From NCBI RefSeq assembly GCF_024502345.1, contig NZ_JALDNN010000001.1: a DNA stretch of 64,000 bases; one strand, written 5' to 3'. The position numbers were made by a program, and so were the translations under genes. This document shows positions 29,862 through 31,091 of the stretch, one piece after another. Position 1 is the stretch's first letter, and each line of letters begins with the position of its first letter. Source of the DNA: Escherichia coli. Lineage in GTDB: Bacteria > Pseudomonadota > Gammaproteobacteria > Enterobacterales > Enterobacteriaceae. Under the pieces are notes generated by a model. The model did not search any database and had not been told where the DNA came from. It was given only the letters and a program-made list of their open reading frames with translations.

Positions 29862-31091
29862 TCAGTTGCTGGCGGCTTCTCGTTTCGGGAAGCTGAACAA
29901 CAAGTCACGATAGTATTCGTACTGTTTTTGTCGTAGCTCGATTTCGCGTGAGAGGCCTTCTGAAATCGACTTAGTGTAAGTATCAAATTTATCAAGAATT
30001 TCAACGATCTGAACTTGTTTGATGAGTGAAATCATTGGTACTTTCACTTCAAGTATTTGACCTTTACGCAAATTTGTTTGATCAACACCATTGTCATGTT
30101 TCAGCAATTGCGGGGTTCTATTTAAAAAATAGTGCAAAAACTTAGGGAGTAATTCATTACTGTTTTTTACTGTAATTCCACCAATACGTTGGTTTAAAGT
30201 GTATTTATGATCTTCATCAATAATAAATGTTTTTGAGAGCGCCTTGCCATTGGGCAGATCACTCATAACTAATAGAATGTCGTCTTTAAAAAGAGGGCAT
30301 AGCTGTTTGTTCGAAAACTTGGCGACTTCGCCATCAGTAGATATAAACTTAGAGTTTACAACAATATATTTACCGTCTTTTGATATGTCTTTTTCATGCC
30401 CCTTTCCATTAGCAAAAGTTGAGACTTCCTCCAATGTCTTCCACTCAACCTCATCCTCTTCAAAACTCAGCAATTTATCACGATAGTAGTTGTACTGTTT
30501 TTTACGTATGTTAAGCTCAGCGGTAAGCTCAGCGGTAAGCTCAGCGGTAAGTGCAGTAAATTTATCCAGAATCCGAACAATTTCAGACTGGATGGCAAGG
30601 GATTTTCCCGGGGCGCTGGGACAAGGGATGGGTATTTGATAGTTTAAAATTGCATCTTTACTGCCTCGAGGCATCTTTGCCCCTTTAGCGTGCTGCATAC
30701 TGTAAGAAAAAAATGAATCCGACGATAATGCATAGTAGAGATATTCTGGACTAATAATTTTTTTACAGTCTGCTAAAATGCGTATAGCAAGGACATCACC
30801 ACTGCACCCGCCATTATTCTCCGCCATCCAAACTTTCTTTAAATATGGGCGAATATTACCTAAAAGAATATCACCTGGCTCATAGGCAGTTAAACGTGCC
30901 GTATTAGGCTGATAGGTGGCATCAATGCGACCGCCTTTATCAGCAAGGAGATTATCAACGCCAACGAATGAAGTGGCATCAAGTTTATCAGCATCAACTT
31001 TGGTTGTTGAATACCCGGCGATATCGCCCACTGCTTTCCATTCAACCTCAACCCCATCCAGCAATTTTTCCAGATAACTCATCTCGCTCAT
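29862..31091 (-). CDS. hsdS: Type I R-M specificity subunit (HsdS), EcoR124-like central repeat [15 protein letters not shown]
   Basis: 409 aa; two target-recognition domains separated by [32 protein letters not shown], with C-terminal [16 protein letters not shown]. Confidence 0.85.
30515..30550. repeat. 12-bp tandem repeat x3 inside hsdS (encodes TAEL on minus strand)
   Basis: Plus strand gctcagcggtaa repeated three times exactly. Confidence 0.85.

Follow-up and report, generated by a model that had tools for sequence, protein, structure and literature searches.

A three-unit TAEL repeat in the hsdS gene of a type IC restriction-modification system on an Escherichia coli chromosomal island

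We think it very likely that the gene described here is the hsdS of a complete type IC restriction-modification system on an integrase-bearing chromosomal defence island, that its three TAEL units give the long target geometry of this family, and that a change by one unit would alter specificity, though only rarely. In the mechanism that we propose, two long antiparallel helices would hold the two variable DNA-reading domains of HsdS apart, and the three 12-bp units would add three Thr-Ala-Glu-Leu turns to one of these helices, D1. This would produce the long geometry known from EcoR124II, EcoDXXI and EcoprrI, with 8 nt between the two adenines that are methylated in the bipartite target. Loss or gain of a unit, by unequal crossing-over or by replication slippage, would change the distance between the half-sites by one base pair and would create a new methylation and restriction specificity. 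We propose that such changes would be rare, evolutionary events and not the product of a programmed high-frequency switch. The mechanism is already textbook knowledge; what is new here is the pairing of target-recognition domains (TRDs) in this HsdS. Among the related E. coli genes, nearly half are three-copy alleles.

The DNA analysed is a single stretch of 64 kb, called the window throughout. Its + strand carries three head-to-tail copies of the unit gctcagcggtaa at 30515-30550, just as the initial annotation had reported. Tandem Repeats Finder (TRF) places the array at 30512-30551, with a period of 12, 3.3 copies, 100% matches and zero indels. The array is in frame within an open reading frame on the - strand (29862..31091, 409 aa), where the units read ACC GCT GAG CTT three times from 30548 down to 30513 and form codons 182-193 of hsdS.

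30512..30551, - strand: perfect 12-bp tandem repeat, 3.3 units, with in-frame units ACCGCTGAGCTT x3 at 30513-30548 encoding (TAEL)3, aa 182-193

TRF returned six rows for the whole window, and this array is the only one at 100% matches. It is also the sole perfect repeat in the 64 kb with at least three copies and a period of 6-30, and perfect arrays of that kind appeared in none of 100 first-order Markov simulations of the window. On these two grounds a chance repeat is excluded.

Judged by every membership feature that can be tested in sequence, the locus is a complete type IC (EcoR124-family) restriction-modification system. Families of this type are defined by subunit homology and complementation. 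The operon consists of hsdM and hsdS followed by a separate hsdR, all on the - strand:

31088..32644, - strand: hsdM, type I methyltransferase subunit, 518 aa (TIGR00497, E 1.4e-193)
29862..31091, - strand: hsdS, specificity subunit of type IC architecture, 409 aa (best PDB sequence match EcoR124 HsdS 7bst_A, E 7e-64, end to end)
26630..29746, - strand: hsdR, restriction/translocase subunit, 1038 aa (TIGR00348, E 4.3e-220)

The hsdM stop and the hsdS start share a conserved 4-nt overlap, and 115 bp separate hsdS from hsdR. All three genes are full length, correspond in length to the EcoR124 subunits and contain no frameshifts; a pseudogene is ruled out by these intact reading frames. Both HsdM and HsdR are close to the EcoR124 subunits. 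HsdM aligns with EcoR124 HsdM (PDB 7bst_D) at 1124 bits and about 96.5% identity over its full length, as counted by eye from the alignment. HsdR aligns with EcoR124 HsdR (2w00_A, also 1038 aa) over residues 1-1037 at 2128 bits; their identity, estimated by eye from an incompletely displayed alignment, is about 92%. The Pfam domain EcoR124_C is present in a homologous HsdR. Together with the fold match described below, the operon models and subunit alignments bear out the earlier reading of this gene as an EcoR124-type hsdS. Promoter-like matches around the operon were no more frequent than in shuffled sequence, and a terminator scan likewise stayed at chance level. We infer that the encoded enzyme is expressed and active.

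The HsdS protein has the layout of its family, namely a short N-terminal constant region, TRD1, a central constant region, TRD2, and a C-terminal constant region that is homologous to the central one. Its parts are as follows:

30603..31031, - strand: TRD1, the N-terminal TRD, aa 21-163; unrelated to the EcoR124 TRD
30435..30602, - strand: central conserved region, aa 164-219, with the D1 helix that joins the TRDs; nearly identical to the EcoR124 central region and containing invariant columns of a 34-sequence alignment
30018..30434, - strand: TRD2, the C-terminal TRD, aa 220-358
29862..30017, - strand: C-terminal conserved region, aa 359-409, nearly identical to the EcoR124 C-terminus; contains D2 (predicted helix 356-398), the partner helix of D1

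When the protein is aligned with EcoR124 HsdS (7bst_A), the first 20 residues and the central and C-terminal regions prove nearly identical, and the two domains between them are unrelated. The invariant columns of the 34-sequence HsdS alignment are confined to the constant regions. The sole gap in the central region is 4 residues long, equal to one TAEL, and lies inside the TAEL run because the 7bst_A chain has two TAEL. This PDB chain is labelled 'EcoR124II specificity protein', but at 404 aa and with two TAEL it represents the EcoR124I form, and the label could mislead comparisons of copy number.

An AlphaFold model of HsdS (mean pLDDT 74) contains two long helices, one continuous over 47 residues (161-207) and the other at 356-398. 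Of the PDB structures, 7bst_A is once more the best match, here by fold, ahead of other HsdS structures. The repeat, at aa 182-193, falls in the middle of the predicted central helix. Its position in the central spacer of HsdS, as first claimed, thus agrees with the alignment to EcoR124 HsdS, which puts it inside the central conserved region, as well as with the predicted helix. In the central and the C-terminal regions alike, the stretch from ILDKF to R.KQY is 17 residues long; with three TAEL units, therefore, the paired helices D1 and D2 are equal in length. These equal stretches fit the statement in a review that three TAEL copies appear to be the optimum (Loenen 2014, PMC3874165).

The relation between copy number and target geometry is known from characterised enzymes. 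EcoR124I has two TAEL units, the target GAAN6RTCG and a methylation interval of 7, and EcoR124II has three units and the target GAAN7RTCG; the initial annotation had invoked this N6 versus N7 difference, and the literature supports it (PMC3874165). EcoDXXI (TCAN7RTTC) and EcoprrI (CCAN7RTGC) have three TAEL units and an interval of 8 (PMC3874165). In hybrids with a changed repeat number, including those of EcoDXXI, specificity shifted exactly as predicted, and the change in repeat number has been attributed to unequal crossing-over in helix D1 (PMC3874165).

An additional case is found on F plasmids of E. coli. The modified motif CCAGN6RTTG, detected by SMRT sequencing, disappears when the plasmid pU12A_A is lost (PMC6692316), and its assignment is to RM.EcoST101IX, a system with 100% identity to that of pIP1206 (bioRxiv 10.1101/2020.06.07.138552). 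The HsdS of pIP1206 and pU12A_A has 427 aa and three perfect TAEL units. In CCAGN6RTTG, 8 nucleotides lie between the A that is methylated in CCAG and the T that follows R, which is the geometry of EcoDXXI despite the nominal N6. This enzyme is consistent with the copy-number rule and serves as a further independent data point. As a three-copy enzyme with an interval of 8 recognises a nominal N6 target, the rule must be one of methylated-adenine interval and not of nominal N. The proposal that copy number predicts the spacer length is thus correct for the methylated-adenine interval (7 nt with two copies, 8 nt with three), but it does not extend to the nominal N count.

Applied to the HsdS of the window, with its three copies, the rule predicts 8 nt between the methylated adenines. 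A spacer of N7 would require half-sites whose inner edges resemble those of EcoR124 (3 + 4 bases). Neither TRD is related to the EcoR124 domains for GAA and RTCG, and therefore the half-sites differ. For TRD1, no characterised enzyme could be linked to the domain. TRD2 is 100% identical to the C-terminal TRD of the chromosomal HsdS of Salmonella enterica Cubana CFSAN002050 (AGQ75041.1, our P0035), among others. Two type I motifs of this strain, GGAN6ATTA and TCAN5GTTY, were left unassigned by its authors (PMC4393132). The S. Cubana HsdS has only two TAEL units; TCAN5GTTY has an interval of 6, a misfit for type IC, whereas GGAN6ATTA can have the interval of 7 that two copies would give. The type IC motif of S. 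Cubana is thus probably GGAN6ATTA. Since the two-copy HsdS shares TRD2 with the window and only this motif fits the interval, the half-site of TRD2 is possibly ATTA, a reading reached by excluding the other S. Cubana motif on its methylation interval. The methylome paper on the ST131 strain EC958 has no type IC system in it.

Comparison with named systems places the locus close to several type IC enzymes, each of which differs from it in some respect. With EcoR124I and EcoR124II of plasmid R124 it shares the gene order, the HsdS constant regions and the 12-bp TAEL unit in D1, and it has three copies, as does EcoR124II; apart from the TRDs, the difference is that it lies on a chromosomal island and EcoR124 on a plasmid. 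It is predicted to share the geometry of EcoDXXI and EcoprrI, but it has no prrC-like gene between hsdS and hsdR, where only the 115-bp gap is found. The RM.EcoST101IX/pIP1206/pU12A_A system is likewise type IC with three perfect TAEL units, and it has a natural two-copy twin (423 aa); it differs from the window in having other TRDs and in being plasmid-borne, within an IS1-flanked transposon. The S. Cubana system has the same island order as the window (DUF3944, HTH, GmrSD_N, HsdM, HsdS, HsdR), but a different N-terminal TRD.

The matches of different parts of hsdS point to different sources. Over the 543 nt upstream of the repeat the gene has 4 mismatches to the allele of E. coli HL15, and downstream of the repeat 560 nt match the S. 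Cubana allele without a difference. The final ~90 nt of hsdS differ again and have yet another origin. The recombination junction lies in the constant region, near 30549-30610, within ~60 nt of the TAEL repeat. Many HsdS proteins of E. coli, Salmonella, Klebsiella and Enterobacter have a TRD1 with 100% identity to that of the window (aa 21-163), combined with a variety of TRD2s. By this pattern of sequence identity, the hsdS of the window is a recombinant, with a new TRD pairing of known modules. Exchange of variable modules across the constant regions is classical in type IC genes (PMC3874165).

Taken singly, both TRDs are common. Neither PLSDB nor the set of 5,426 complete E. coli genomes contained a record covering at least 80% of hsdS, and a collection of ~15 billion proteins had neither the exact HsdS protein nor this pairing of TRDs. 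The best full-length protein match was 78% identical. A search pattern that required both TRDs led to one metagenome contig, QZLR01000177.1 (L023), whose hsdS is identical at 1230/1230 positions, including the three units. As this contig carries the identical gene independently, an assembly artefact is unlikely. The surrounding genes have diverged: between 5214..11228 of L023 and 26639..32644 of the window, hsdM is 96.5% and hsdR 96.2% identical, and the DUF262 gene next to this segment is 97.3% identical. An identical hsdS between diverged flanks would mean either that the specificity gene moved as a cassette or that the flanks are recombinant. No copy-number variant of the window allele was found, and its only other occurrence, in L023, also has three units.

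Repeat number varies naturally among related alleles. Of the 1067 complete-genome E. coli records that matched the central region, we sampled 60 systematically and scored copy number from the span of the match in the record relative to its span in the query. Two copies were present in 31 records and three copies in 25; the 4 further rows were partial matches. Chromosomes accounted for 15 of the two-copy and 8 of the three-copy alleles, and plasmids for 16 and 17, respectively. A three-copy allele is also present in strain E2348/69, for which no methylome paper was found in the literature searched. When synthetic four-copy and one-copy queries were run against the complete E. coli genomes, no four- or one-copy allele topped the ranking; one-copy proteins do occur, in small number, among the ~15 billion collected proteins. 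Within an allele the units are usually identical, with ACC or ACA as the first codon; the allele of E. coli F11 combines one unit of each kind. A cross-species scan with a gapped DNA pattern, one genome per species, gave 7 matches, all of them two-copy, which are too few to be useful.

The clearest case is a pair of F plasmids. The hsdS of pU12A_A (L007, 679..1962) has three units and encodes 427 aa, and that of pJSWP021_1 (L010, 682..1953) has two units and encodes the 423-aa protein WP_023142242.1; over the other 1248 nt there are 0 mismatches. The flanks are identical as well, over 678 nt of hsdM and over 550 nt downstream that include the start of hsdR. A third plasmid, pSLy2 (L006, 679..1950), is two-copy (423 aa) and has one further difference from pU12A_A. 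On the evidence of these sequences, natural change in TAEL copy number occurs in a sister system of the one in the window. The first two plasmids form a natural EcoR124I/II-like pair, and both forms are widespread on plasmids of E. coli. The motif predicted for the two-copy form, CCAGN5RTTG, was not found in the literature searched, where only the three-copy motif CCAGN6RTTG is reported.

The system lies on an island of recurrent architecture. The window is E. coli chromosome, as its flanks encode exact matches to three E. coli proteins, malate synthase G, an AppA-type phytase and a lactate permease, and the segment with the operon is lower in G+C. Its other features include the following:

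32848..34725, - strand: DUF262/GmrSD_N protein, 625 aa, directly upstream of hsdM (PADLOC candidate defence family HEC-05, E 1.8e-230)
35157..35870, - strand: WYL/DeoR-type HTH regulator, beside the JukA/DUF3944 remnant
35973..36266, - strand: JukA/DUF3944 remnant, C-terminal 97 aa only
37082..38404: tyrosine integrase, in the same lower-G+C segment as the hsd operon

The DUF262/GmrSD_N neighbour is also present in L001, L021 (a Salmonella island) and L023, which suggests a conserved defence module of type IC and GmrSD-like systems. The island architecture recurs in E. coli F11, in Salmonella genomes with the S. Cubana allele and in L023. Both L021 and L023 have the complete JukA/DUF3944 gene of 249 aa; homology to L023 ends at window position 36296, and the gene is therefore 5'-truncated in the window.

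The main alternative to a rarely changing allele is that the repeat is a contingency locus, whose copy number changes at high frequency within the strain, so that cultures would contain a mixture of at least two methylation specificities in the manner of a phasevarion. The three units are perfectly identical and in this respect form the best substrate for slippage, otherwise identical two- and three-copy alleles both circulate on E. coli F plasmids, the alternation between EcoR124 and EcoR124II was first seen in culture (references in PMC3874165), and Atack et al. have raised TAEL-adjacent repeats as possible specificity switches (PMC7383803). However, classical phase-variable loci are long tracts of short units, and the locus has only three units of 12 bp, a poor substrate, which places it outside the simple-sequence-repeat phase-variable type I systems. 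The complete E. coli genomes that we sampled have two or three copies only, and the identical three-copy allele persists where hsdM and hsdR have diverged by ~4%. Moreover, a switch would be expected to leave an unmodified chromosome exposed to the new specificity. We therefore regard a contingency locus as improbable, and we similarly doubt that (TAEL)3 toggles to (TAEL)2 often enough to sustain subpopulations with different methylomes and restriction barriers. The repeat had also been described as slippage-prone. The one-unit difference between otherwise identical F-plasmid genes supports this description in the sense of rare unequal crossing-over or slippage that shows up across populations, not of rapid switching. 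Both known occurrences of the window allele carry three copies.

It is less probable still, and in our judgement very unlikely, that the system is a silent or defective remnant whose repeat number has no present consequence: chance-level promoter matches and the decayed JukA/DUF3944 gene nearby in the island would agree with this, but the three intact, full-length genes, the conserved overlap of hsdM and hsdS and the recurrence of the operon architecture in many genomes argue against it. We prefer the reading in which the operon is functional and the repeat changes rarely, and we infer that the window allele itself can switch.

If toggling did take place, a chromosomal type IC system would be a working specificity switch and not a fixed allele, and the hybrid TRD pair would give two previously undescribed recognition sequences. 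For the reading that we favour, the results offer a target geometry, predicted from sequence alone, for a restriction system of E. coli that is uncharacterised: the methylated adenines would be separated by 8 nt, and the target may have the form ...N7ATTA. A single 12-bp event at the repeat would alter the barrier of the strain to incoming DNA. For those who annotate methylomes, two- and three-copy alleles are about equally common in E. coli, and the copy-number rule is best expressed as the methylated-adenine interval. Our understanding of type IC enzymes is unchanged by these results.

Other tandem repeats in the window also lie in open reading frames. Just downstream of hsdR, a 48-bp repeat at 26113-26393 (5.9 copies, 87% matches) fills an ORF of 114 aa (26070..26414, - strand). 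The homologue of this ORF in E. coli F11 is annotated as a '5-fold beta-flower protein', and the Salmonella island has an ORF of 112 aa at the equivalent position (L021 10613..10951). Outside the island, imperfect 30-bp and 18-bp repeats at 20350-20466 (70-75% matches) lie in an ORF of 185 aa (20263..20820, - strand), the product of which looks like a low-complexity repeat protein.
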